A stretch of DNA of 64,000 nt from Paraspadella gotoi (Eukaryota; Animalia; Chaetognatha): assembly GCA_051294375.1 (NCBI GenBank), contig CM119271.1, forward strand, positions 16,454,212 through 16,518,211, read 5' to 3'. How positions within the stretch are numbered: the stretch's first letter is position 1; every line of letters begins with the position of its first letter. A program made the position numbers and the translations under genes. Below the pieces are notes generated by a model that did no database searches, had not been told where the DNA came from, and saw only the letters and a list, made by a program, of their open reading frames with translations. This document shows positions 17,904 to 59,300 of this stretch, piece by piece.

Positions 17904-20900
17904 ACTCCCTTAAGTATTAGATCGGGGAATACTTATTGTACTCCGCACTAGCATCATGTTAGAGCTTTCGTACATGTATCATTCTCTTCACATTTTTAAG
18001 GGCTTTCAGAGGATATTAATATTGATAATATCTTAATTAATACTTTGTCTAAATAAAGTGTTTAAATTTAAAAAAAATCGATTTAAAAACAGTGAGTTGG
18101 AAAATAAAACCCCATTTTAAAAATTAACTTTCTCCACTCATTGTCAAGGCATATCTTAACTGATCAATATAAAATTTGAACACATAAATGATTTTAGTAT
18201 TTTTTACTCAACTATCTTTTAAAATCAATGAAATAACCACAGGTTTACAAATGGCAGCGTTTTTTTACCGGCGCTTGTAAAATTGTCACCATGTAAATAA
18301 AAATACATACTTTTTAAATTAAAAAAAATTGTAACAATTAAATTTAATCTAAAAACGAGTTTAGCTCTCCCTTAATAATTTTATGGTCAATCTCGTTTTT
18401 AGATTAAATTTAATTGTTACAATTCGTCCGGTCATTTTGTTACCGCTATTTTTTCTGGTCGTACTCAATTTTTGGAGAGATTGAACCAGAATTTTTAGTT
18501 CTGTTTTAATACTCAAACAATAAAACGTTCGCCTGTTTTCGAACCCCGTTTTTACGGGTTTCCGGTGGACTGAAATATTTGTACAATAAAATTTCATTAT
18601 TACTACCAAAAATATCTTCTTCTTCGTGAAACCTACGTTAAGCAGTCGAAAGAGGCAACATCCGGATGCTCGTCTTGCTAGCGTGAGAATAAACCATTCT
18701 TCACAACAATTAATAATTCATCGTGTCAATGAATGACTATCATCTCATCAATGAATGACTATCATCTCATCAATGAATGACTATCATCGCATCAATCATT
18801 TGGTTATCATAGCATCAATAATAAATTACTATGACATCAATCAATTACTATTTCATCAATAATTCGTTATGGCATTAATCATTCGTTTTTTTCTCTGGAT
18901 TTTGTCATTAATTTTCTTTGATAGTAACGTCTAGCGAGATCACTATACTTTAAAGAATTTTTTTTTCATCTTTTTTCTTCATTTTCCCATAAGCCTCCAC
19001 AACGAAATCAAATCCAGGATCGCCATCACTTTTGTCTCTCGATAAAATGATACAAATTTTCCACAGATGTCGCTAATAGAGAGATTTTTGTTCGCGCAAT
19101 CACAAACAAAAGATTTTCGCCTAAAAAAAGGAAAATATGGAATTAAAAAAAATTATAGGCTGCTTGAGTGATGACTCACACTTTGGCGGAAATAACAACG
19201 CTTTCATTTGTTTGCGACAAATATATATACATCAGTCCGTCCATCTGTCCACTTCATTCTTTCGTGGTTGAATTAATTCCCTCATTCTATGGTGTAACGT
19301 CATTCTGGGATCTTTTTCTGTGGCTGACATTTACCAGTTTCTTGATTGTTTAATTGTTTAAAGAAATGTTTTTCCTAATTTGCTAACATTTTGATGCTAG
19401 AGCGGAGTACAATATAGTATTTTCCGAACTAATACATAAGGGAGTGGTCTTTTCATACAATTAAAATATTCTTTGAAATATTATATCACTTCATTTATAG
19501 GGAAGCCAGGTACTCTGGGAGTGAATAAACAAGACTGTGAGAGAGTCTTGATTAGTTAACTGTTAAGTAACCAACTAAAGACTGAGAATTGAACCCCCCC
19601 CAAAAAAAATAAACCAAAGATTAGAAAATGTAAAATAATTTTATTATGATTTTAATAACGTTTTTATTATTTGATTTAAGCGCTGATGAAGGCTTTCATA
19701 CAATTGAAACATTCTTTGAAATATTATATCACTTCATTGATAGTGAACTTAAATCTTTTACTTTCCTATTCCTCAACATCTTTATTTCCATTTCATCTAA
19801 ATTTCAATTTCTTAATTCAATCTAAATTATTTAGTTTAGCTATTAAGTCTATTTACATATTTATTAATTTTATTATTGTATTGTATTGTTTCTAAATGTT
19901 AACCTCTGCTTCTCTCTCTCTCCCTGTCTTTTCCCTGTCTTTTCCCTCACTCTCTCTCTCTCTCTCTCTCTCTCTCATCGGCTTGGGCAGTAGAGCGTAG
20001 TAAAAGTTACATACGGAAATTCTAAAAGTCAATTATGAACAACATACCATCAGTGAACATTAATTTGTAAAAAAAATTAATTTTATGTTTTTTTAATTTT
20101 CGCAGTAGGCTATATTTATATATAGTACTATCAAAATAGGCTTTTCTCAATTTAGATTGCAGATTTGAATTCCTCGTCAAAATTTGATAAAAAAAATATA
20201 AATCATTTTTAACAATTATTTCATTAAGTGGGTTAAAAATTAAAAAAACTATATTTAATATATAGGCTTTTTCTAATTTTTGACCCACTTAATGAAAATT
20301 TTTTTAAAAAAGAGTTATATTTCTTTTTATCAACTTTTTATGACAAATCCAAATCTGCAAAAAAATCTTAGAAAAAAGTCTTTTGAAATTTTAACATTTA
20401 TTAGATTAGTACTAGTATAATATTTGAACAACAATTGCACATGATGGATAGGGCAATTGCCTTGAAATTTGTATGATGGTAGGAAATGTGTGATTGAGGT
20501 GGATATAAAGTTTCAATGGAATCGTGCGAGTGGAAATGAGTTAAAATGGAAAAAAACAAAGTCATATTTACTTGAAGTATTTTTTACTAAATTTACTCAT
20601 AATCATTATGTTTATTAAAAATTGGATAGATAAATCGAAATTGAATTTTGTGTGTGGTAGGAAAGTATGTGATAAAGCTGGATATAATTTTTTTGATGGA
20701 ATCGTAGGAGTGGAAAAGAGTTCAAATTAGAAAACCAAAAGACACATTTATTTGAATTTTTTAAAGTTTCTCTCTCTCTGATTGATTGATTGATTGATTG
20801 ACCAAATTATGCCAATTGACAAAAATATGCCAGTTGACCAAATTCTTAAAGTTGACCAAATTATGCCAGTTGACCAAATTCTGCAAGTTGATCAGTTCTG

Positions 20901-21179: not shown

Positions 21180-22101
21180 TTTTGGGAAGATCTGAGTTCG
21201 AGTTGTGGATTGGCAATATCCACTCCTAGTCGTCATTCACGTAATATTCTTGGTGACGGCGTTCGTGCAAATCTTCTCTTGCGTTTCGACCGTGTTCGTT
21301 CTCTCATCACGGTTCACAACATCGATTGGCGTGAGAGGAAAATCACGAGTGAACGAAAACGAAACCCTTCACGTCAACACTTCGCCACAACCGCAACCAT
21401 CAATGCCAACGTCGTTGCACAGTTTATAACAACGGCGCTTTCCATTGCGATCGGCGTCGTCGTTCTCTTTATCGGTCGCTTATGGCGTCGGAGGCGGCGT
21501 AGATGACCGTCGATGGAAAAAGCGTCAAAACGCCGGAGCGTCGCTTTGGTGCGGCGTCGTCTTTCTACTAGTCTCATGGCTCGGCTTCAAAGCGGCTCGA
21601 TTAGGACAAAACGTTTATTTAATCCTTTTTCTCTGCTTCAACGTCCTCGGGACAATTTTGTCGCCGGTGGAGATCATAGCCGCGTCCTTCGCTATCGCTG
21701 ATTACGATGAAGACATGTTGGTGAAAGATCGAAAGTGCGATCCCTATTGCGAATACATCTTGGCCGATAACGCCTCTAGATTCGTTCTCCCTCTCATCCA
21801 CCTTGATGGCGTGCTCATTCTGACCGGGTTACTGCATTTTGCCTTCAGCATTTGGGGCATCGCTTCGGCATCGAGGGCGCTGCATCGCGACAGAGTGTGC
21901 GCTCGCTGTTGTGGTGATTGCTGTTGCGGCTGCTGTGGCGGCGACTCAAGGTCCGCAGTGAAGTACGTGGTGGCGCGCGGATCGGCGGAGGGAACTCTTG
22001 TGCTGGTGCCGATCGATAACTCCGTTGCTGTGGACTCCATCGCCGTTCAAACGACCGTCATCGACGGGGAGAGGACGACAGAACTGCAGCTACCTGCATG
22101 A
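21180..22101 (+). pseudogene. Frameshifted partial duplicate of the MS4A-like gene (3' portion only)
   Basis: Nearly identical to 25770-26697, but with several frameshifting indels in 21200-21480 and no N-terminal segment. Confidence 0.7.
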
Positions 22102-22655: not shown

Positions 22656-22906
22656 TATGGCAACAGCCGGGTTGCTGTGATGCCCTTGGGATGGGGCATC
22701 TCACTGTTGGCTTTGGGGCTTCCGACCCTCATTGACGCCTCCAGTCACTGGCGCGGTTACCCTAGGACGGTCTCGCTTTGCAACACAGAGGGAAGACGTT
22801 AGGACTGTGGATGGAACACTACGCCTGGGATGCTGTGTTCCCCCTCTGAGCCTATGGATTTGGCTGAAGCATGGTGGACGTGAGGCAGTGTGAATATACC
22901 GCCACA
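22656..22906 (-). mobile_element. Solo LTR, family B, with a twister-like motif
   Basis: TATGGC...GCCACA termini, flanks ATCC/ATCT, homologous to 33838-34086. Confidence 0.85.
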
Positions 22907-22912
22907 ATCTAT

Positions 22913-23135
22913 TATGGTGGACTAAAATCCACTAACCGTTCATCAGCGGCCATTGGTGCCGCAGGAAAGTCATTCGTCTCCCAACCCAAAGGTCCGGGGT
23001 TTTAGCCCGATGGTCGCCTAGCAGTTAAGAGGGACGGGGCGCTTAACCCGCCTGTAACATGGTGTTACAGCCTGATCCAAAGCTCAGGGACTGTATATAT
23101 TGAACGGTTCTGTCACTAAACCATAACAGTAATTA
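22913..23135 (+). mobile_element. Solo LTR, family C, 3'-truncated by the duplication breakpoint
   Basis: Homologous to 27515-27748. Confidence 0.85.
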
Positions 23136-23885: not shown

Positions 23886-24097
23886 TATGGCACGGTTGGC
23901 TTTGGGGGCTTCCGACTCTCAGTGACGCCTCCAGTCACTGGCGCGGTTACCCTGGGACGGTCTCACTTTGCTAACGCAGAGGGAAGTCGTTAGGGCTGTG
24001 GATGGAACAGTACGCCTGGGATGGTGTGTTCCACCTCTGAGCCAATGAATTTGGCTGAAGGATGGTGGACGTGAGGCGGTGTGAATATACCGCCACA
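23886..24097 (-). mobile_element. Solo LTR, family B (one hairpin deleted), with a twister-like motif
   Basis: TATGGC...GCCACA termini, flanks ATAA/ATAG. Confidence 0.85.
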
Positions 24098-24304: not shown

Positions 24305-26697
24305 ATGATCATTGGAGGGGCCTGCCTTTTCTCTACACGGTCCTGCGCTTCAAACAGTCTGTGGAATCCTCTCCATTATCTTTTCCGTTACGGATCTCGT
24401 TCTCATTAAAACCTTCCTCCATCATCACGCGCCTTTCAGCGGCACCGCTAGCAGCGGCGGCTGCGGCGGCGTCATCTTCGTCCTCGCCGGCGTCGTCGCT
24501 CTCGTAGCCGGCGTTAAGCGGCTCGTGTTCGGCTGGATCGTCGCTGCGCTGACGTGTCAGCTTTGCAGCGCCTGCTGCTCCCTATTTCATTTCGTCAACG
24601 CGATTTTGTCATTGATCGTCGATCGATGGCTTTGGCATTGTGGTCGTTTTTTTAGTCGGATCTGCTTATCAGCAGATCCCGAATCTATAATTCACTTTGT
24701 CGGTCCGTCGGTCCGCCCCTTCAATATTGTTGGGCATACACTTATATCATGTCAGAACATCGAATTATGATAAATTATGCAAAAAAAATGATGTCCGTCC
24801 GTCTGTCTGTCTGTCTGTCTGTCCGTCCATCCATCCCACCTTAGCAAAAAACTCCAATTACTCGTGATTGGATGGATGGATTGGTATGAAATTTTGTGTG
24901 TGGGTAGGAAACTGTGTGATTGAGATGGATATGAAGTTTCGATGGAATCGTGAGAGTGGAAATTGGTTTAAATGAAAAAAACAAAAAAATATAATTCACT
25001 GTTTGAACAACAATTGCACATGAGTGATAGGGCAATTGACTTGAAATTTGTATGATGGTAGGAATGTGTGATTGAGGTGGATATAAAGTTTCAATGGAAT
25101 CGTGCGAGTGTGAAATGAGTTAAAATGGAAAAAACAAAAGTCATATTTACTTGAAGTATTTTTTTACTTAAATTTACTCATAATCATTATGTTTATTAAA
25201 AATTGGATAGATAAATCGAAATTGAATTTTGTGTGTGGGTAGGAAAGTATGTGATAAAGCTGGATATAAATTTTTTGATGGAATCGTAGGAGTGGAAAAG
25301 AGTTCAAATTAGAAAACAAAAGACACATTTATTTGAATTTTTTAAAGTTTTCTCTCTCTCTGATTGATTGATTGATTGATTGACCAAATTATGCCAATTG
25401 ACAAAAATATGCCAGTTGACCAAATTCTTAAAGTTGACCAAATTATGCCAGTTGACCAAATTCTGCAAGTTGATCAAGTTCTGCAAGTTGACCAAATTAT
25501 GCCTGTTGACCAAGTTATGCCAGTTGACCAAATTAGGCCAGTTGATAAAATTATGCCAGTTGACCAAATTATGCCGGTTGACCAAATTATCTAATGGATC
25601 AAATTAAGTCAGTTGACCAAATTATGTCAGTAGAGCCAAATTAAGTCAGTTAACCAAATTATGTCAGTTGACCAAATTATGCAAGTTGATTAAATTATGC
25701 AAGTTGACCAAGTTAGCTTATTACCACTTAATTATCGTAGGCAGATCCGACATTGTTTGCTCAAACTTGTTTTTGGGAAGATCTGAGTTCGAGTTGCGTG
25801 GATTGGCAATATCCACTCCTAGTCGTCATTCACGTAATATTCTTGGTGACGGCGTTCGTGCAAATCTTCTCTTGCGTTTCGACCGTGTTCGTTCTCTGCA
25901 TCACGGTTCACAAACATCGACTTGGCGTGAGAGGAAAATCACGAGTGAACGAAAACGAAACCCTTCACGTCAACAACTTCGCCACAACCGCAACCATCAA
26001 TGCCAACGTCGTTGCACAGTTTATAACAACGGCGCTTTCCATTGCGATCGGCGTCGTCGTTCTCTTTATCGTCGCTTATGGCGTCGGAGGCGGCGTAGAT
26101 GACCGTCGATGGAAAAAGCGTCAAAACGCCGGAGCGTCGCTTTGGTGCGGCGTCGTCTTTCTACTAGTCTCATGGCTCGGCTTCAAAGCGGCTCGATTAG
26201 GACAAAACGTTTATTTAATCCTTTTTCTCTGCTTCAACGTCCTCGGGACAATTTTGGCGCCGGTGGAGATCATAGCCGCGTCCTTCGCTATCGCTGATTA
26301 CGATGAAGACATGTTGGTGAAAGATCGAAAGTGCGATCCCTATTGCGAATACATCTTGGCCGATAACGCCTCTAGATTCGTTCTCCCTCTCATCCACCTT
26401 GATGGCGTGCTCATTCTGACCGGGTTACTGCATTTTGCCTTCAGCATTTGGGGCATCGCTTCGGCATCGAGGGCGCTGCATCGCGACAGAGTGTGCGCTC
26501 GCTGTTGTGGTGATTGCTGTTGCGGCTGCTGTGGCGGCGACTCAAGGTCCGCAGTGAAGTACGTGGTGGCGCGCGGATCGGCGGAGGGAACTCTTGTGCT
26601 GGTGCCGATCGATAACTCCGTTGCTGTGGACTCCATCGCCGTTCAAAAGACCGTCATCGACGGGGAGAGGACGACAGAACTGCAGCTACCTGCATGA
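24305..26697 (+). CDS. Tandem double MS4A/CD20-like multi-pass membrane protein (~8 TM, Cys-rich tail), interrupted by a HINE-like insertion; may be disrupted
   Basis: The 5' part (LQTVCGILSIIF...GGVIFVLAG...CQLCSACC...HCGR) joins in frame to FWEDLSS...(25770-26697) once 24647-25769 is removed. Two repeats of the MS4A-like Q...G / WxGxxF / L...S pattern. The ATG at 24305 is 1 nt out of frame, so the start is uncertain. Confidence 0.6.
24647..25769 (+). mobile_element. Full-length DINE-1/HINE-like element inserted in a T-run
   Basis: TTTAGTCGGATCTGCTTATCAGCAGATCCCGA start, (GTCY)n, 18-bp array at 25380-25712, GCAGATCCGAC...CAAACTTG|TTTTT end. Confidence 0.85.
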
Positions 26698-27252: not shown

Positions 27253-27507
27253 TATGGCAACAGCCGGGTTGCCTGTGATGCCCCTTGGGATGGGGCATCT
27301 CACTGTTGGCTTTGTGGGCTTCCGACCCTCATTGACACCTCCAGTCACTGGCGCGGTTACCCTAGGACGGTCTCGCTTTGCCAACACAGAGGGAAGACGT
27401 TAGGACTGTGGATGGAACACTACGCCTGGGATGCTGTGTTCCCCCTCTGAGCCTATGGATTTGGCTGAAGCATGGTGGACGTGAGGCAGTGTGAATATAC
27501 CGCCACA
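27253..27507 (-). mobile_element. Solo LTR, family B, with a twister-like motif
   Basis: Perfect 4-bp TSD ATCC on both sides of TATGGC...GCCACA. Confidence 0.9.
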
Positions 27508-27514
27508 ATCCTAT

Positions 27515-27748
27515 TATGGTGGACTAAAATCCACTAACCGTTCATCAGCGGCCATTGGTGCCGCAGGAAAGTCATTCGTCTCCCAACCCAAAGGTCCGGG
27601 GTTTTAGCCCGATGGTCGCCTAGCAGTTAAGAGGGACGGGGCGCTTAACCCGCCTGTAACATGGTGTTACAGCCTGATCCAAAGCTCAGGGACTGTATAT
27701 ATTGAACGGTTCTGTCACTAACACATAACAGTAATTATTGTCTCTTCA
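27515..27748 (+). mobile_element. Solo LTR, family C, with a twister-like motif
   Basis: TATGGT...TCTTCA with a perfect TSD CTAT. Confidence 0.9.
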
Positions 27749-29402: not shown

Positions 29403-29762
29403 GGCAGGGAGATCGAGTACAGATTAAACGACTACCTAACTAGTGGAGCTGAGCTGGAGAAAATCAGGAAGATCTTCGACACTGTTTCCAGCGTCGACAA
29501 AGAAAAACTCGTCAGCGCCCTCGTAACCAAAGAACTGACCGACCAAGACTGGACGGCGAGCACAACGGCCTTTTACCAGGGCACCATGCTGCAAGAGTTG
29601 AACAACGTTAACGAGTCCATCAAAGAGATGAAAAGCCAACTCGGAAAACCGACTCACCCAAGGGGATGATCGACGCCGAGACGATCGACGCGACGAGCGC
29701 CGCTATGATGACCACGAGCGTGGAGATACCAGATGTTTCGAAAAAACAAATCAAAGGGGCCC

Positions 29763-30537
29763 ACTATAAGAGCTTAGTATGGTGGATGACGGAAAATATC
29801 ACAGGGCCTCGCTATCGAGCCAGAACAACTACACAATAAGAGCTTAGTAGGGTGGATGACGAAAAATATCACAGGGCCTCGCTATCGAGCCAGAACAACT
29901 ACACTATAAGAGCTTAGAAGGGTGGATGACGAAAAATATCACAGGGCCTCGCTATCGAGCCAGAACAACTACACTATAAGAGTTTAGTAGGGTGGATGAC
30001 AGAAAATATCACAGGGCCTCGCTATCGAGCCAGAACAACTACACTATAGGAGCTTAGTAGGGTGGATGACGGAAAATATCACAGGGCCTCGCTATCGAGC
30101 CAGAACAACTACACTATAAGAGCTTAGTAGGGTGGATGACAGAAAATATCACAGGGCCTCGCTATCGAGCCAGAACAACTACACTATAAGAGCTTAGTAG
30201 GGTGGATGACGGAAAATATCACAGGGCCTTGCTATCGAGCCAGAACAACTACCACTATAAGAGATTAGTAGGGTGGATGACAGAAAATATCACAGGGCCT
30301 CTCTATCAAGTCAGAACGACTACACTATAAGAGATTAGTAGGGTGGATGACAGAAAATATCACTGGGCCTCGCTATCGAGCCAGAACAAATACACTATAA
30401 GAGCTTAGTAGGGTGGATGACAGAAAACATCACAGGGCCTCGCTATCGAGCCAGAACGACTACACTATAACACTATAAAAGCTTAGTTGGGTGGATGACG
30501 GAAAATATCACAGGGCCTCGCTATCGAGCCAGAACGA
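29763..30537 (+). repeat. 70-bp minisatellite, ~11 copies
   Basis: Unit ACTATAAGAGCTTAGTAGGGTGGATGACGGAAAATATCACAGGGCCTCGCTATCGAGCCAGAACAACTAC at 29763, 29833, 29903 and onward. Confidence 0.95.
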
Positions 30538-32209: not shown

Positions 32210-33424
32210 ACTTATGAGTGGACGGGGCGATTGATTTATAATTTTGTATGTGGGTAGGAAAGTGTGTGATTAAGCTGAAAATCAAGTTTCGATGGAATCG
32301 TTTGAGTGGAAATGAGTTTAAATGAAAAAAAAAACCTGTTTCACTAATTGATTATGCTTCTTTTTTTATATTAAATGTAAATGCAAGACGTTTTAATTAA
32401 TCAAATAATTAATCAGTTAATTAATCAATTAGTTAATTAATTAATAAATAATTATTTAATCGGTCAATTGATAAATCAATTAATTATTCAATCAATAAAT
32501 TTATTTAGTTTTGCCGCGCGGTTCTCCTTCGCGTTTTGGATCGCAAAAATGTGAGCTTCTTCCCTGTGGCTCCGGATTGGCTGGCCTTAACCAATCGACG
32601 ACGAGAGTTTCGAGAAGATAATATTACCTTTGTTCCCGCGAATTTAGCGCAAGGTCGACGAGAAAACGTGTTGGCCGAGGGTTAATTGATTCTCTCTATC
32701 TACTTGTTTTTATCTTGTTTTTATCTTGTTTTTATTCCGTTGAAGAGACAGTAATTAATGTTATATGTTAATGACAGAACCGTTCAATATAGGCAGTCCC
32801 TGAGCTTCGGATCAGGCTGTAACACCGTGTTACAGGCGGGTTTGTTAGATCCAAAGACTCGCGAATCGTGATATCTGAGTTCGAACTTTACTTCGTCACA
32901 AGGATTTATCGTTTGGATCATTTCGTCATTCGTGCCATCAACGGAATGGACCTATAAACGGACTTGGTTGGCCTTGTGATGTGATTGCTCGTCTCCTTCA
33001 TGAATCATCAGAATGCCGACGAATCACAGACCTTACTTCAACCTTAGAATGACCAATGACCGTCAGAGGAACCGACGGAGGGATTGATGGTCAAAATTGC
33101 TAAGAGAACTCTAGGCATTCACCTCTACACCCAAACTCAAGAAAGAACTCTTCTTCAAATAATTATTGAACCATTTAATATTGTCATCATCTTTGTCTTA
33201 ACCTTTGTCATCGTGTTGATGGTGTCATTCCGTTGATGGTGCTTTAGTTTATTCATTGGTTTTTGAGTTTATACTGATTTTTGTAATTCTTTTGAGCGTT
33301 TAAATAATAACTTTGATAATTATTCTTTATTGTACTGTTTCAATATCTATATGCTTTGATTATTTTATTAAGTTAGTATGGCAACGGGAGGACTACCTTA
33401 TACCGGCCGGGGGTATCTCACTAA

Positions 33425-33503
33425 CTGGCGTAGGGGCTGCGGACCCTCAGTGACCGCCTCCGTCACTGGCATGTTTATACCGGCACCGTCACATTTAAGC
33501 CAG
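33425..33503 (-). ncRNA. Predicted type-P5 twister ribozyme (LTR-A)
   Basis: CTGGC-ttaa-ATGT-GACGG-tgccggta-TAA-ACAT-GC-CAGTGAC(ggaggcg)GTCACTG-AGGG(TCCGCAGC)CCCT-A-c-GCCAG shows P5, P2, P1, P3, P4, T1 GC/GC and T2 CCG/CGG. Predicted cut at 33477/33476. Confidence 0.8.
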
Positions 33504-33887
33504 AACCGGATACCCAGGGATTGAACCCGGGACGCACGGATGGAATGAGATGATTTAGCCTGCTCAGCCATTGAACGAGGCTGAGGACGGACAGCAGTGA
33601 GGCAGCTTTAAGTCTTGCTGCCACAGGATCCCCCACCAGACCTCTCCACAGGGGCCTCAATCCTGAGGAGATGTCTGAAGGTTTTGATCTCATTGCATAG
33701 TGAGAGCGAGCGGGCGAGCGAGCGAGTCTGGAGCGTTACCAGAGAAGTAGGGCATAGGCGTGATATGCATACCCTAAGCGACTAAGCGTGGCACGCCGTG
33801 CGCAGCGGTTGCGTGTTCGATAGTAGGGCTCACCACTTATGGCAACAGCCGGTGCCTGTGATGCCCATTGGATGGGGCATCTCACTG

Positions 33888-33963
33888 TGGCTTTGGGGGC
33901 TTCCGACCTCCAGTGACACCTCCAGTCACTGGCGCGGTTACCCTAGGACGGTTCGCTTTGCCA
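33888..33963 (-). ncRNA. Predicted type-P5 twister ribozyme (LTR-B)
   Basis: TGGC-aaa-GCGA-(G)ACCG-tcctaggg-TAA-CCGC-GC-P3-P4 loop TCGGAAGC, with T2 CGG/CCG. This copy lacks the G that other B copies have in GACCG. Confidence 0.7.
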
Positions 33964-34366
33964 ACGCAGAGGGAAGTCGTTAGGACTGTGGATGGAACAC
34001 TACGCCTGGATGGTGTGTTCCCCCTCTGAGCCAATGGATTTGGCTGAAGGATGGTGGACGTGAGACGGTGTGAATATACCGCCACAGGATCCCCGGGTCA
34101 AGACATCACTCAGGTTCCTCAAGCCTGAGAGGTGTCTGACAAGACTGTTACATAGTGGTGGAGAGAGAGAGCAGCGAGTTGTGGGGGCATAGGCGTTGTC
34201 GTAGCGTACCCCAGGGCATAGGCGTTTGTTGTAGCGTAACCCGAAGTCGGCAGGGCATAGGCGTTTGTCGTAGCGTACCCTGAGAAGGTTGCGTGTTCGA
34301 TAGTAGGGCTCACCACTTATGGCACGGGAGGATAGCCTGTGATCCAGGGCGCGGGTATCTCACTAA

Positions 34367-34445
34367 CTGGCGTAGGGGCTGCGGACCCTCAGTGACCGCC
34401 TCCTGTCATGGCATGTTTATAACGCGCACCGTCACATTTAAGCCA
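34367..34445 (-). ncRNA. Predicted type-P5 twister ribozyme (second LTR-A)
   Basis: Same core as 33425-33503, with small indels in P3 and P1. Confidence 0.72.
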
Positions 34446-35656
34446 AACCGGAATACCCAGGAGTGAACCCGGGACGCACGGATGGAATGAATGATTTAGC
34501 CTGCTCAGCCATTTGAGACAGAGCTGAGGACGGACAGCAGTGAGGCAGCTTTAAGTCTTGCTGCCACATTATGTACCCCTTTTTAAACTCTTCATAAACT
34601 CAGAGAAATAAGAGAGACTATTTGATCGTCGATCTGCTCAAGCCACCAAATCATGCCTTTGAAGAATCTCTGGTCTACCGAAGCATCTCGCCGGGGCTGA
34701 GGAGTTTCCTCAAATATTCTTCGAATATTCTCGGGGGCGTTTTAGGAGGAGGACGGACCGGCGGGTCCTTACAGGTTAAGCCCCCCGTCCCTCTTAACTG
34801 CTAGGCGACCACCGGGCTAGAACCCCGGACCTTTGGTGCCTCCGGCACCAATGGCCGCTGATGAAGGGTTGGTGTGTTTTAGTCCACCATACCGTTTTTA
34901 TTCCGTTTTTATTTGTTTCGTGCCCTTTTTGATGCATTACATTATTTTATGCTAACCTTCGGAAACTTGGTCGAAATATTTAGTTCTAGTCGGCGCAAGA
35001 TCAAACATATCTATTAATTAATTATTTAATCAATCAAGTCAATCTTTATATTGTCATCGTCACCATCATCGTCGTTGTTGCTTTTGTTGTGGCCAGTGAT
35101 GAAAAGACCTTAAAACAAACATTTCAGATCAAATTAATTAATTTATTAAATTATTATTTTAGTTTATATAGTCTGTAATAATTAATTAATTACCGCTAAT
35201 GATCGTGGACAGATCCGACATTGTTCGATAGTGAACAAGTTTGAGCAAACGATGTCGGATCTGCCCACGATCATTAGCGGTAATTAATTAATTAATACAA
35301 ACTATATAAACTAAAAAATAATTTAATTAATAAATTGTTTTATAATTAATTAATAGGTAACTAAATAGATGGATTGAATAGTTGATCAATTATTTATTAA
35401 TTAATTGACTGATTGATTAACTGATTAATTAATTAACTAATACATCTTACATTTACATTTAATATAGAAAGAAAAAAAAGCATAATCAATTAGTGAAACA
35501 TATTTTTTTTGTTTTTTCCAGCTTAATCACACTTTCATGCCCACACAAAAAATTTCATTCCAATCCATCCATCCAATCACGAGCAATAGAAGTTTTTTGC
35601 TAAGGTGGGACGGACAGACGGACGGGCATCGTTTATTTTTTTTTGCATAATTTATC

Positions 35657-37325: not shown

Positions 37326-37368
37326 ATCAGACATGTTTCAACTCTTGTTCGAGCCTTCATCAGTATTT
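37326..37368 (-). ncRNA. Minimal hammerhead ribozyme copy with a weak stem I
   Basis: CTGATGA-A-GGCTC(gaacaa)GAGTT-GAAA-CATGTC, followed by the same AT-rich tail as at 35780-35830. Confidence 0.7.
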
Positions 37369-45781: not shown

Positions 45782-46438
45782 TATAGTGGACTAAAATCCA
45801 CCAACCGTTCATCAGCGGCCATTGGTGCCAGAGGCAAGTCATTCGCCTCCCAACCCAAAGGTCCGGGGTTCTAGCCCGGTGGTCGCATAGCAGTTAAGAG
45901 GGACGGGGCGCTTGACCCGCCGGTAACACGGTGTTACAGCCTGATCCAAAGCTCAGGGACTGATTATATTGAACGGTTCTGTCACTAACTCATACCAATG
46001 AAGAGACAGTAATAATTGTTGAGCCCGACTTCCGAACACAACAGCAACAACACCTTCAGGCGACATGCCTCAACCTGGCGATGCACTTTCCGCCCACAAT
46101 ACATCAAGCGACATGCCTCAACTTGGTGACAAACTTTTCACCAACAACAACAATTCACTGAAGAGAGGCAACAGATTTCTCCCTGCAGGAGGGGGGGATG
46201 TATGGTGGATTAAAATTCACCAACCGTTCATCAATGGCCATTGGTGCCAGAGGCAAGTCATTCGCGTCTCAACCCAAAGGTCCGGGGTTCTAGCCCGGTG
46301 GTCGCCTAGCAGTTAAGAGGGACGGGGCGCTTAACCCGCCTGTAAAACGGTGTTACAGCCTGATCCAAAGCTCAGGGACTGCTTATATTGAACGGTTCTG
46401 TCACTAACACATAACATAACATAACAACTGTCTCTTCA
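45782..46438 (+). mobile_element. Two-LTR TRIM-like element, family C
   Basis: LTRs at 45782-~46015 and 46201-46438, ~180-bp non-coding interior, PBS (TGGT)GAGCCCGAC scrambled by a micro-inversion, PPT AGGAGGGGGGGATG. The outer flanks do not form a TSD. Confidence 0.88.
46309..46382 (+). ncRNA. Predicted type-P5 twister ribozyme (LTR-C) with a T2 mismatch
   Basis: GCAGT..GG-GACGG-ggcgct-TAA-CCC-GC-P3-CCTGA(TCCAAAGC)TCAGG-G-ACTGC. Confidence 0.6.
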
Positions 46439-56392: not shown

Positions 56393-59300
56393 GAGAGATG
56401 GGGAGGGAACAAGTTTGAGCAAACAACGTCGGATCTGTCCACGATCATTATCATTATCATAATTAATTAATTAATTAATTAATTAATTAATTAATTAATT
56501 AATATTAATTCAAGTTAATTAATTATTTGATTAATTAATAATTAATTTATTCAATTGAGTTATTTAATTAATTAGGAAATTAATTAATTAATTTGATCCG
56601 TAATGTTTGTTTTTTTTGCAGAATTTTCCAAACTTTGTTAAATCATAGTTTATCATAATTCGATGTTCTGACATGATAAAAGTGAATGCCCGACAAGATT
56701 GAGGGGGCGGACCAACGGACCGACAAAGTGAATTATAGAGTCAGGATCTGCTGAAAGCAGATCCGACTAAAAAGACAGGGAATAAGTAAAACTAAAAGGG
56801 ACAGAAAACTATTAAAATTAACAGTGAAAGTTTTAGTTTTATTAAGAAAGGCCGTTTAGCCCTTCCGGAAATAGGGATACTGAAGCCAGGTCGTCTGGGA
56901 GTTAATAAACTGGACTGAGAGTCTTGATTAAAAACTTTCAGGATCTTGCTATGTCATTATCTTGCTATGTCATTATCTTACTATGTCATTATCTTGCTAT
57001 GTCATTATCTTGCTATGTCATTATCTTGCTATTATGGTGGACTAAAATCCACCAACCGTTCATCAGCGGCCATTGGTGCCGGAGGCAAGTCATTCGCCTC
57101 CCAACCCAAAGATCCGGGGTTCTAGCCCGGTGGTCGTCTGGCAGTTAAGAGGGACGGGGCGCTTAACCCGCCTGTATCATGGTGTTACAGCTTGATCCGA
57201 AGCTCAGGGACTGCTTATATTGAACGGTTCTGTAATTAACACTTATCAATAATTACTGTCTCTTCACTATGTCATTATCTTGTAAGAGTCAGGGAGTCAA
57301 GATCGTCGAATTCTTATTACTAAAAATTCAGTCCTCCACTATGGAGGCTATAAACTACTGAAGCCTGTCCAGAGTTAGGGGTCAGATAGCTTATTTCTTA
57401 AATGAATGGATAATTTTTACATTGGTTGAACTAATTTCATAAAACTTAAACCAAAAAATGACAATAAAAAAATTAATGAAAAAATCCGGAGAAAATAACG
57501 AATGATTCAATAAAACAAATGCGTGTATGAGTGAGAGAAAGAGAAAAAGAAGAGAGAGAGAGAGAAAAGGTCGATGTGTCGTGAATTGTGAAGTTGAGAC
57601 GGAAGGAGAAGAGGAGGAAGAAGAGGAAGAAGAGGAGGAGGAAATAAAAAAGAAAGACAAAAAATTGATGCGATAATAACCAAATGATTGATGCAATGAT
57701 AACCAAATGATTGATGCGATGATAGTCATTCACTGATGCGATTATAGTCATTCATTGACGCGATGAATTATTCAACGTAAATAAAACAAACAAATGCGTG
57801 TATAAGTGAGAGAGAGAGAAAAAGAGAAGTTAAACCGCTGCAGAGCTAAAATCGGTTTTTTTAAATGAATCAGAAGTTGCAGCGCATGACAAAAGAAAAA
57901 TAAATATATATATAATTTAAAGAAATAAAAGAAAGACAAAAAATGTTACAATTGTTTACAATCGTATTTAAATATTGTATACAATTGTAATTAAAAGAGA
58001 AAAGAGAGCTTCATACACCCAAATTTAATTATAAAAAAGGCGATCGATAATTTGTAACGACGACGACGACGACGCCTAAGCTACGCCACTTATGCCCAAA
58101 AGCGTTACTAGCGATTGCTACGATAAAAAAGCGTGACGCCGACGCAGACAACGACAACGATTACGACAACGACGACGACGACACAAAGAAGCTAAAGCGA
58201 TCCAAAATCTAGCCAAGACCGGCTTAAGCCCGTCTGGCGAGATAACAACAATCTCTCCCCTTTATTCCTTTTCGTTCACCTGAGAAACAATACTCGAAGA
58301 AATTCCTTTCAAAAGAAAGAAAGGAAGTGTTGACGACTCGACAAACAGCGACATCAGTAAATGCGGAGACGAAATCGTCAAACGACATCCAGAACTCTCC
58401 ATTGTCCTCAAAGGAAAGATCGAGTTTGGCTTTTTCTGAGTCGGAGATCTTGTTCCATCTTAAGATAAAAGGGTCGTGTGGCAAATAAACGACTTAATAT
58501 CGACTTCAAATGAGTCAAAATGGAGGTGGGATTCAAAAAAATGAGCTCCTGGCGATTCCGAAATGAATTCACTTTGAACATATGATGCGTTTTACGCCAT
58601 ATATTATATTATATTTATATTACTATGCATAGTAATATAAAAGAAAAGAAAACTATCTGAAGCGAAAACAAAAAATTCAATAGAAATAATTTTGTAATTT
58701 AAACTTGTTTCCAAATAAAAAAAAACTTATAAAACCAAAACAATAAATTATTATGCGACAGAAACGATTTTATTAATATGTCTCTGTATTGAATTTCTGA
58801 AAAAGTTTCGAGTAAGATTGATACACATTTTTTAAATTGATATTACTGCAGACTGAAAAGGGGAGGGAGGGAGAGAAAAAGAGAGAGACAGAGAGAGAGA
58901 CTCATTTTGCCCCTACCTTTCATCGCCGTCAGAGAATGACCCATTCCACTCTTTCTGACCCCAAGGATTTCGTAGTCGAATCATATCAAGTTTTTCTCCT
59001 CCACCAAAAAGACCAAAAAGCCCAGAGTCGCCGCCTGTGGAAATCTGAAAAGAACACAAAATATCATTTGCATATTACAGTAAAAACTTGTTGGTAAGTT
59101 TTGGCCTCCAAACGACCTTATTAGGAAATTGTCTATGTTTCGCCAACTTTTCTATGCATAATTATTATTTTAGGCTAAAGAAGAACAAAAATTAATTCGA
59201 AAAAATTATCTTGGGTTATGTTTAAAATAATTAATGTGGAGTATAAGAGAAAAAATCATTACCACGTAGAAATCTTAACGCTTTTCCGAATTAATTAAAT

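Follow-up and report, generated by a model that had tools for sequence, protein, structure and literature searches.

Reviews up to 2026, in the text available, divide the retrozymes into long terminal repeat (LTR) elements of plants with type III hammerheads and non-LTR elements of animals with type I hammerheads (PMC7761336, bioRxiv 2026.07.22.740005). Twister ribozymes, known in the permutations P1, P3 and P5 (PMC10085705), have in eukaryotes been tied to the 5' ends of RTE elements (PMC7761336), and they also occur in viroid-like circles (bioRxiv 2022.07.19.500677). In this study we analysed a stretch of 64,000 nucleotides from the chaetognath Paraspadella gotoi (assembly GCA_051294375.1, contig CM119271.1, positions 16,454,212 to 16,518,211; hereafter the window), where an array of small LTR elements at 33377-34568 appears to unite LTRs with twisters. 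An earlier note on this DNA had contrasted the locus with LTR retrozymes as plant hammerhead elements and with animal twisters as mainly companions of non-LTR elements. Our search covered open-licence PMC and bioRxiv papers, with subscription papers outside its scope, and the text available there held no LTR retrozyme outside plants or hammerheads (PMC4918200, PMC5680766, PMC6765202, bioRxiv 2026.07.22.740005).

[quoted passage not shown] Animal Helenus elements leave target-site duplications (TSDs) of 4 bp and depend on Gypsy elements, and transcription of Helenus itself by RNA polymerase III (Pol III) is putative; the available text of the same paper mentions no ribozyme for any Helenus (PMC10886601).

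We propose, with a probability of roughly 55%, that three families of the window, here called A, B and C, are protein-free TRIMs whose LTRs carry a type-P5 twister fold, and that they act as LTR retrozymes by way of Pol III transcription, twister cleavage, a circular RNA and a helper reverse transcriptase primed by tRNA-Trp. The observed basis of this proposal is the anatomy of LTRs, primer sites and TSDs, the many insertions, a covarying fold, a palindromic P1 stem, and promoter boxes in family A.

Anatomy of the A-B-A array

The array lies on the minus strand, and its parts are as follows (a slash between adjacent positions marks a predicted cut).

34568-33377, minus strand: A-B-A array in the order LTR A1, internal region 1, LTR B, internal region 2, LTR A2; non-coding
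34318..34568, minus strand: LTR A1, the 5' LTR of the array, with box A at 34500-34511 and box B at 34459-34469
~34365-34447, minus strand: twister fold of LTR A1, predicted cut 34419/34418
34283..34315, minus strand: first split primer-binding site, complementary to tRNA-Trp over 10 nt, then a 4-nt gap, then 18 nt
34087..34317, minus strand: internal region 1, 231 nt, no notable open reading frame (ORF), with a short G-rich run resembling a polypurine tract (PPT) at 34090-34094
33838..34086, minus strand: LTR B, the middle LTR, with a twister fold at 33885-33965 and predicted cut 33940/33939; the G of the core GA is absent in the assembly
33807..33835, minus strand: second primer site for tRNA-Trp, likewise split; its 38-nt block repeats the first one exactly
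33626..33837, minus strand: internal region 2, 212 nt, with a G-rich PPT-like run at 33629-33637
33377..33625, minus strand: LTR A2, the 3' LTR of the array
33517..33570, minus strand: tRNA-type Pol III promoter motif in A2, with box A at 33559-33570 (9/9), box B at 33517-33527 (10/10), a T-arm-like hairpin around box B and 43-nt spacing
33425..33503, minus strand: best-preserved P5-permuted twister fold, in A2, with palindromic P1 at 33478-33485 and predicted cut 33477/33476
33373..33376, minus strand: 3' target-site copy of the array, 3 of 4 nt as in the 5' copy at 34569-34572

Non-coding elements with LTRs of about 250 bp and a primer-binding site had been described in the earlier note, and this description is confirmed by the three LTRs and the primer-site blocks on the minus strand. 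The LTRs of the array (n=3, ~250 nt) have the ends TGTGGC...GCCATA, and the identical 38-nt block stands after LTR A1 and again after LTR B. A1 and A2 are 90% identical and A and B 61%, and the predicted cuts are 479 nt and 463 nt apart, giving an A-to-A unit of 942 nt. The size is that of TRIMs, which are shorter than 1 kb, have two LTRs of 100-250 nt and code for nothing: a complete element of family C, found elsewhere in the window, measures 657 nt, the LTRs 234-255 nt, and there is no retroelement ORF. As to the PPT claimed in the same note, the C element has a tract of 12 purines, and A and B have just a G-rich run of 5-9 nt. The claimed 4-bp TSDs hold in part: they are perfect (4/4) at five of the nine testable insertions, match at three of four positions at three others and at one of four at the last, and the array itself has 3/4. 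No single contig of the two DNA runs with which we compared the window spans the whole array, and the order of the three LTRs comes from the assembly alone.

A permuted twister fold in the LTRs

Each LTR of the array can be read in the order P5-P2'-GA-T'-P1-UAA-P2-GC-P3-P4-L4-P5', with the U^A step at 34419/8, 33940/39 and 33477/6. A descriptor of this permuted core, modelled on the wording of the earlier note and on the Rfam line and thus partly post hoc, found three of six A/B LTRs in its strict form and five of six when relaxed, at a chance rate of at most 2 in 20,000 LTR shuffles and with 0 matches in 40 block-shuffled windows. Across the six A/B cores 88.9% of 162 pair cells are paired, against 26-42% in slid controls. 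Both sides have changed between A and B in five of 27 pairs (P2 accounts for two, and the 3-bp pseudoknot, P5 and P1 for one apiece), a covariation that comes from two families only and in which each double change counts as one event. The 3-bp pseudoknot is 100% paired in A and B and includes one of these double changes, while the 2-bp pseudoknot is invariant; relative to the CCC/GGG pseudoknot of the Rfam consensus, which the Schistosoma twisters also have (PMC8501958), one pair is flipped in A and two in B. In a mutational scan of the Osa-1-4 twister, swaps of pseudoknot pairs retained activity and mismatches abolished it, and P1, P2 and P4 tolerated mismatches (PMC5113685).

The best independent test of the twister fold is the recovery of family C. 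A model built from A and B alone found all five unsplit C copies with 20.6-29.5 bits (rough E-values of 1e-4 to 1e-7), and the next-best match outside C reached 14.4 bits. The LTRs of C are just 50-52% identical to those of A and B, where shuffles give 47%, and BLAST missed the family. The fold lies on the sense strand and 3' of box B in all copies. Fold costs were calculated for families A and C; in A2 the twister fold stands 3 kcal/mol above the minimum fold, pseudoknots uncounted.

A chance resemblance or an assembly artefact would have on its side the many single-base deletions of the window relative to the run contigs, as well as the want of a contig across the whole array. The shuffle controls, the 12 copies in three families and the thousands of matching contigs in independent runs speak against it; as a reading of the motif, chance is already refuted, and we regard this explanation overall as scarcely credible. 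The twister fold is very probably real and under selection, and the type-P5 reading of the earlier note is supported by the chance controls, by the covariation and by the recovery of family C from structure.

A palindromic P1

The P1 stem, a feature absent from the earlier note, is a palindrome of 6-8 nt, which differs in sequence among the three families and is self-complementary in nine of the 11 parsed copies. P1 alone cannot form a hairpin, and a P1-P1 duplex has -8 to -11 kcal/mol. Three Watson-Crick palindromic inner tetramers would arise by chance with a naive probability of (1/16)^3, a post hoc piece of arithmetic. Hammerheads with a weak helix III cleave as dimers (PMC7761336), and by analogy the palindrome suggests that these twisters may cleave as dimers too. 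Such gating may be partial, since twisters without P1 can still cleave, albeit slowly (PMC8501958; PMC5113685).

A tRNA-type promoter motif and the relation to Helenus

Neither the promoter motif of the LTRs nor the nesting of the array in two other LTRs (see below) had been recorded in the earlier note. Scored with box A and box B patterns, with chance estimated from 300 shuffles, the boxes lying 5' of the ribozyme match at 19 of 19 positions in A2 (with the 43-nt spacing) and at 17 of 19 in A1, values reached by 0/300 shuffles each. Two C copies have 16 and 15 of 19 (5/300 and 35/300 shuffles). To judge from the sequence, such boxes in the LTR correspond to the Helenus/TRIMp3 design.

Transcriptional read-through offers another account, in which the ribozyme cuts host or Pol II transcripts that run across the LTR and frees the element RNA, circles being a by-product and Pol III having no role. 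Plant and animal retrozymes have been proposed to depend on read-through (PMC7761336), and the boxes are eroded in the abundant B family. The perfect box A and box B at tRNA spacing in A2, together with matching motifs at the same place in C, make this account highly improbable in our view.

Two elements of Synergus wasps, Helenus-2_SyJa and Helenus-2_SyUm, extend the comparison. By eye, in the supplement of PMC10886601, a type III hammerhead is present in full in their LTRs, on the 3' side of box B, with a 7-bp stem I, CUGAUGA, a 4-bp stem II, GAAAC, a 6-bp stem III, a GUC site and complementary loops. These LTRs start with TGTGG and have no T run after box B, again by eye, and within the accessible parts of the supplement the pair are the only consensus elements primed by tRNA-Trp. 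A review from 2020 alludes to insect elements that have type III hammerheads and had not been published (PMC7761336). Among the other Helenus LTRs in those parts no twister was visible by eye, and five L4 octamers had no LTR match there, a comparison in which line breaks can hide matches.

Primer site, insertions and helper

The primer site begins 2 nt after the 5' LTR. Its first 10 nt can pair with the 3' end of tRNA-Trp (CCA added), and beyond a 4-nt gap up to 18 nt can pair with the T-arm and variable region. The reference was the tRNA-Trp gene of contig L010, predicted with ARAGORN and belonging to another organism than the host; its match supports the tRNA-Trp primer named in the earlier note. 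The T-arm part alone is not specific for tRNA-Trp, because a first pattern covering it matched the T-arms of tRNA-Thr and tRNA-Ala in two of eight viral loci. A longer pattern gave two loci, one tRNA-Trp gene and one BEL/Pao primer site. The latter lies in a BEL/Pao retrotransposon of contig L013 (4257-15150, minus strand), which has a tRNA-Trp primer site of about 40 nt and is filed in a bacterial metagenome-assembled genome; L010 has a tRNA-Trp gene of eukaryote type, and both contigs look like eukaryotic contamination. The A/B model found no twister match in the BEL region of L013, and the primer-site or core patterns gave 0 matches in metagenome, GTDB and IMG/VR contigs.

A tRNA-Trp primer and a 4-bp TSD define the CsRn1 lineage of Gypsy elements (PMC3630058, PMC3587641). 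Because both are found here, a CsRn1-clade Gypsy element is our best guess, by analogy, for the helper; the long tRNA-Trp site of the BEL/Pao element in an unrelated contig speaks against exclusivity for CsRn1.

The two DNA runs contain 6,858 and 6,591 contigs that match the element. Contigs passing from the 5' end of LTR B into unlike flanks number 99 and 93 (agreement 0.41-0.42), and there must therefore be many insertions, although contig depth in the runs is not equal to copy number, and the better-matching run may come from the source of the window itself. Matching contigs also occur in two runs that are RNA by guess only, which says nothing on expression.

The middle LTR and the origin of the array

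The middle LTR is the one A/B LTR of six that the relaxed descriptor fails to catch, and in the assembly it lacks the G of the core GA. This G is kept in the three other B copies of the window and is read in 74 and 81 contigs of the two DNA runs (37% and 34% of summed depth), and 39-57 further clipped contigs show it. At the deviations of the middle LTR (core G, P4 and P5), the letter that keeps the fold is often or mostly the one read in the run contigs. Across 33377-34568 the window has numerous single-base deletions relative to the majority of these contigs, which suggests an unpolished long-read assembly in which defects of single copies need care, and which makes it plausible that the missing G is an assembly error.

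One contig leads from LTR B into internal region 1, and one joint in the run data connects LTR A with internal region 2. The usual elements are thus probably B-int1-B and A-int2-A, and the A-B-A locus is likely a recombinant of A and B elements, joined at the shared 38-nt primer-site block. Such an array could be explained by a circular template or by intermolecular plus-strand transfer, and mixed arrays exist in TRIMs that have no ribozymes (PMC6934838). The A and B strands of P2 and of the pseudoknot cannot pair with each other. The positions and spacings of the three cut sites given in the earlier note stand, but the release of 479- and 463-nt units is doubtful because of the mismatched ribozyme halves and the missing core G of the middle LTR; the 942-nt unit is likelier.

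Proposed cycle and the evidence weighed

In the retrozyme cycle that we propose, Pol III would start just 5' of box A in the 5' LTR, and the twisters of the two LTRs would pair through their palindromic P1 and cut about 100 nt downstream of the start. P2, P5 and the pseudoknots would hold the released unit, with its 5'-OH and cyclic-phosphate ends, in one piece, and a host ligase would seal it into a circle with one ribozyme and no partner. tRNA-Trp would prime the helper's Gypsy-type reverse transcriptase, which would run round the circle and rebuild two LTRs, and a Gypsy integrase would insert the copy and leave the 4-bp TSD. Once the 5' LTR has been cut, the terminal redundancy on which ordinary strand transfer depends is gone; a circular template restores it, as is established for plant retrozymes (PMC7761336, PMC4918200). 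What we infer in this cycle is transcription by Pol III, the cleavage itself, its gating by dimers, the closing of the circle by a host ligase and the identity of the helper.

Several observations weigh against this retrozyme reading, those on the fold foremost. Rfam at gathering score gave 0 matches in the 64-kb window, and scans by E-value gave partial twister-P1 matches only (15.1 bits, E 8.9, and 12.7 bits, E 3.2, with a cut-off of 67.2) and no twister-P5; a scan of the full C element gave nothing relevant. The earlier note had held that the lack of a covariance-model hit would count against it, and for the Rfam models this is what was found, although they cover other permutations. GA, UAA and both pseudoknots are kept together in just six of the 11 parsed copies (GA in 10, UAA in 10, a fully paired 3-bp pseudoknot in seven), and the pseudoknot has a mismatch in four of five C copies. 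Each LTR has the P5-permuted fold, but the statement that every LTR carries a twister goes too far in view of these counts and of the core G that the middle LTR lacks. P2 is imperfect, with a C-A mismatch in B and just two in-register pairs in C, and L4 of A has C where A is usual. Plain identity between A and B is no better in the core (50/83) than in the 3' part of the LTR (32/54); the 5' part has 63/123. Among the 40 of 77 substitution rows listed, true polymorphisms number one in the B core (loop L3) and six in the 5' 124 nt, too few for a test. A scan of the A, B and C LTRs for hammerheads found none.

Core defects in five of 11 copies and very low Rfam scores are what a vestigial ribozyme would leave, if an ancestral TRIM had captured a tRNA-headed short interspersed element (SINE) or the end of a long interspersed element with a twister, the fold now decaying and having no part in transposition. 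An origin by SINE insertion into an LTR was proposed for Helenus by Kojima (PMC10886601). A decaying fold accords poorly with compensatory changes between families of just 50-61% identity, with palindromy retained in three different sequences and with run contigs that preserve the fold better than the copy of the window; moreover, the published twisters of retrotransposons are, as far as the sources available go, of P1 type at RTE 5' ends and not of P5 type. We consider a vestigial ribozyme improbable.

Further points against the retrozyme reading concern the rest of the cycle. The boxes are not significant in B (40/300 and 123/300 shuffles) and mixed in C, no Rfam tRNA match occurs in these LTRs, TTTT is present inside the full C element, paired LTRs share just 89-90% identity, and no helper element or pol-like match was found within the 64-kb window. 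Compared with shuffles, the predicted units have folding z-scores of -2.4, +0.1 and -1.25 and are 56-61% paired, where more than 70% is quoted for retrozyme RNAs.

Because the units fold only modestly, with a stability that is not viroid-like, a linear cycle stays alive as an unlikely alternative that still deserves attention. The active twister of the 3' LTR would here make the RNA 3' end instead of an oligo-T, the 5' copy would be mostly silent, and the ~100 nt from start to cut would be the R repeat, as in Cassandra. None of the A or B LTRs has four T in a row downstream of box B, but 1177 of 2000 dinucleotide shuffles lack such a run too; the absence is not significant, and the notion that the ribozyme replaces the terminator found no statistical support. 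By eye, a T-rich run stands immediately behind the tRNA-like unit of many animal Helenus LTRs, whereas fish Helenus have neither T runs nor a visible ribozyme. A weak P1 could slow the 5' copy, but we found nothing that silences it alone (the penalty is 5.1 versus 5.2 kcal/mol with or without U3), and the palindromic P1 speaks for two copies acting jointly. The tandem and mixed arrays of TRIMs without ribozymes (PMC6934838) are in favour of the linear cycle.

Other copies and their surroundings

The window contains 12 LTR copies in three families, and the array is nested, lying within a fourth repeat, D, which in turn lies within a solo LTR C. The copies outside the array, with D, are listed here.

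32843..34773, minus strand: element D, solo-LTR-like repeat of ~735 nt with ends TGT...ACA and a perfect 4-bp TSD, interrupted by the A-B-A array
32741..34891, minus strand: solo LTR C, split, with a perfect 4-bp TSD; D breaks its twister immediately after the predicted cut
27253..27507, minus strand: solo LTR B, perfect 4-bp TSD, predicted cut 27359/27358
22656..22906, minus strand: solo LTR B with predicted cut 22759/22758, related to the 27 kb copy by segmental duplication
23886..24097, minus strand: solo LTR B with a 3' deletion, predicted cut 23949/23948
27515..27748, plus strand: solo LTR C, perfect 4-bp TSD, twister fold 27622-27698 with one pseudoknot mismatch
22913..23135, plus strand: solo LTR C, 3' end not located
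57033..57266, plus strand: solo LTR C, perfect 4-bp TSD, intact core, predicted cut 57164/57165
45782..46438, plus strand: two-LTR C element, 657 nt, no TSD, with LTRs 45782-~46015 and 46201-46438 and a putative PPT at 46187-46198 (12 purines)

The 657-nt C element has a decayed tRNA-Trp primer site at 46017-46039, with the same gap as in A and B, and its cut-to-cut unit is 419 nt. At 45998-46016 (plus strand), beside this primer site, about 17 nt are inverted at the 3' end of the 5' LTR. The element and the split C copy at 32741 have a common 3' flank. In the insertion of D, the duplicated 4 nt start exactly at the predicted cut of the C twister, which may be chance. Joints in the two DNA runs that skip 1201-1204 nt at the array correspond to D copies that have no such insertion; D recurs in the runs and may represent a helper element's solo LTR.

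Solo LTRs B and C stand head to head, 6-7 nt apart, at 27253-27748 and 22656-23135, and these pairs sit in a segmental duplication together with a CD20-like gene (25741-26697 and ~21430-22101) that scores below the Pfam cut-off. The window is AT-rich and also contains a calpain exon, whose best match in the PDB is calpain-5; the calpain and CD20-like families are in keeping with an animal genome. A 70-nt unit is repeated in tandem about 11 times with 92% matches (29762-30535). Motifs that resemble minimal type I hammerheads (CUGAUGA...GAAAC), as described for Penelope-like elements, occur at 19683, 23539, 35745 and 42872 on the plus strand and at 37363 and 29515 on the minus strand.

Comparison with known systems

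An LTR element with a twister in an animal breaks both pairings of the literature, that of plant LTRs with hammerheads and that of twisters with RTE, and it would give the twister a second testable biological role. It would also mean that the design of LTR plus ribozyme arose, or was re-fitted, more than once; and elements of this kind have probably been under-counted, since the permutation escapes the Rfam models. Together with the Synergus elements, the families lead us to the more tentative idea that animals have LTR retrozymes of their own, as a lineage of Pol III-driven TRIMs primed by tRNA-Trp and with an exchangeable ribozyme 3' of the promoter (a type III hammerhead in the Synergus wasps and, in the present case, a type-P5 twister gated by dimer formation); palindromic P1 would let the two-LTR precursor cut and spare the circle with its one ribozyme, and copying round circles would produce mixed arrays. 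If this more tentative idea were true, no twister-based retrozyme would precede the present one, and no natural twister before it would have needed a partner copy.

The animal TRIMs ta-TRIM (PMC4558846) and biv-TRIM (PMC6934838) are short LTR elements too, non-coding and accompanied by solo LTRs and tandem arrays; the available text of these papers mentions no ribozyme, whereas a twister fold is present here. Perere-3/RTE twisters of Schistosoma (PMC8501958) share the link to retrotransposons, a similar P3 and tolerance of a poor P1. Unlike the fold described here, they are of P1 type, and each of the autonomous non-LTR elements has just one, at its 5' end. With the twister class at large (Rfam twister-P1 RF03160; PMC5113685) the fold has in common UAA, the GC/GC and 3-bp pseudoknots, GA, P2, P3, P4 and the AA before P2'. 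It differs in being open at P5 while having P3, in a P1 shrunk to a palindrome of 6-8 nt and in scores far under the Rfam cut-offs, and its activity is a candidate one.

Plant LTR retrozymes (PMC4918200, PMC7761336) resemble these elements in being non-coding, with a self-cleaving motif per LTR (predicted in the present case), a primer site, a PPT (putative in the present case) and a 4-bp TSD, as well as in their solo LTRs, multimers and inferred Gypsy helper. They have a type III hammerhead and a tRNA-Met primer, in contrast to the type-P5 twister with P3, the tRNA-Trp primer and the animal host of the present case; their LTRs are about 350 nt long with a spacing of 600-1000 nt, as against 234-255 nt and 419-479 nt. 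The chaetognath elements add a tRNA-type promoter motif, fold more weakly overall, and have circles by prediction only. Helenus/TRIMp3 (PMC10886601) shares with them the TRIM size, box A and box B in the LTR, the 4-bp TSD and, in the Synergus pair, the tRNA-Trp primer; the twister, boxes that are clear in family A only and the split primer site set them apart. By analogy with both groups, the element would work like an LTR retrozyme and is built like a Helenus, differing from the described retrozymes in having neither a hammerhead nor a tRNA-Met primer.

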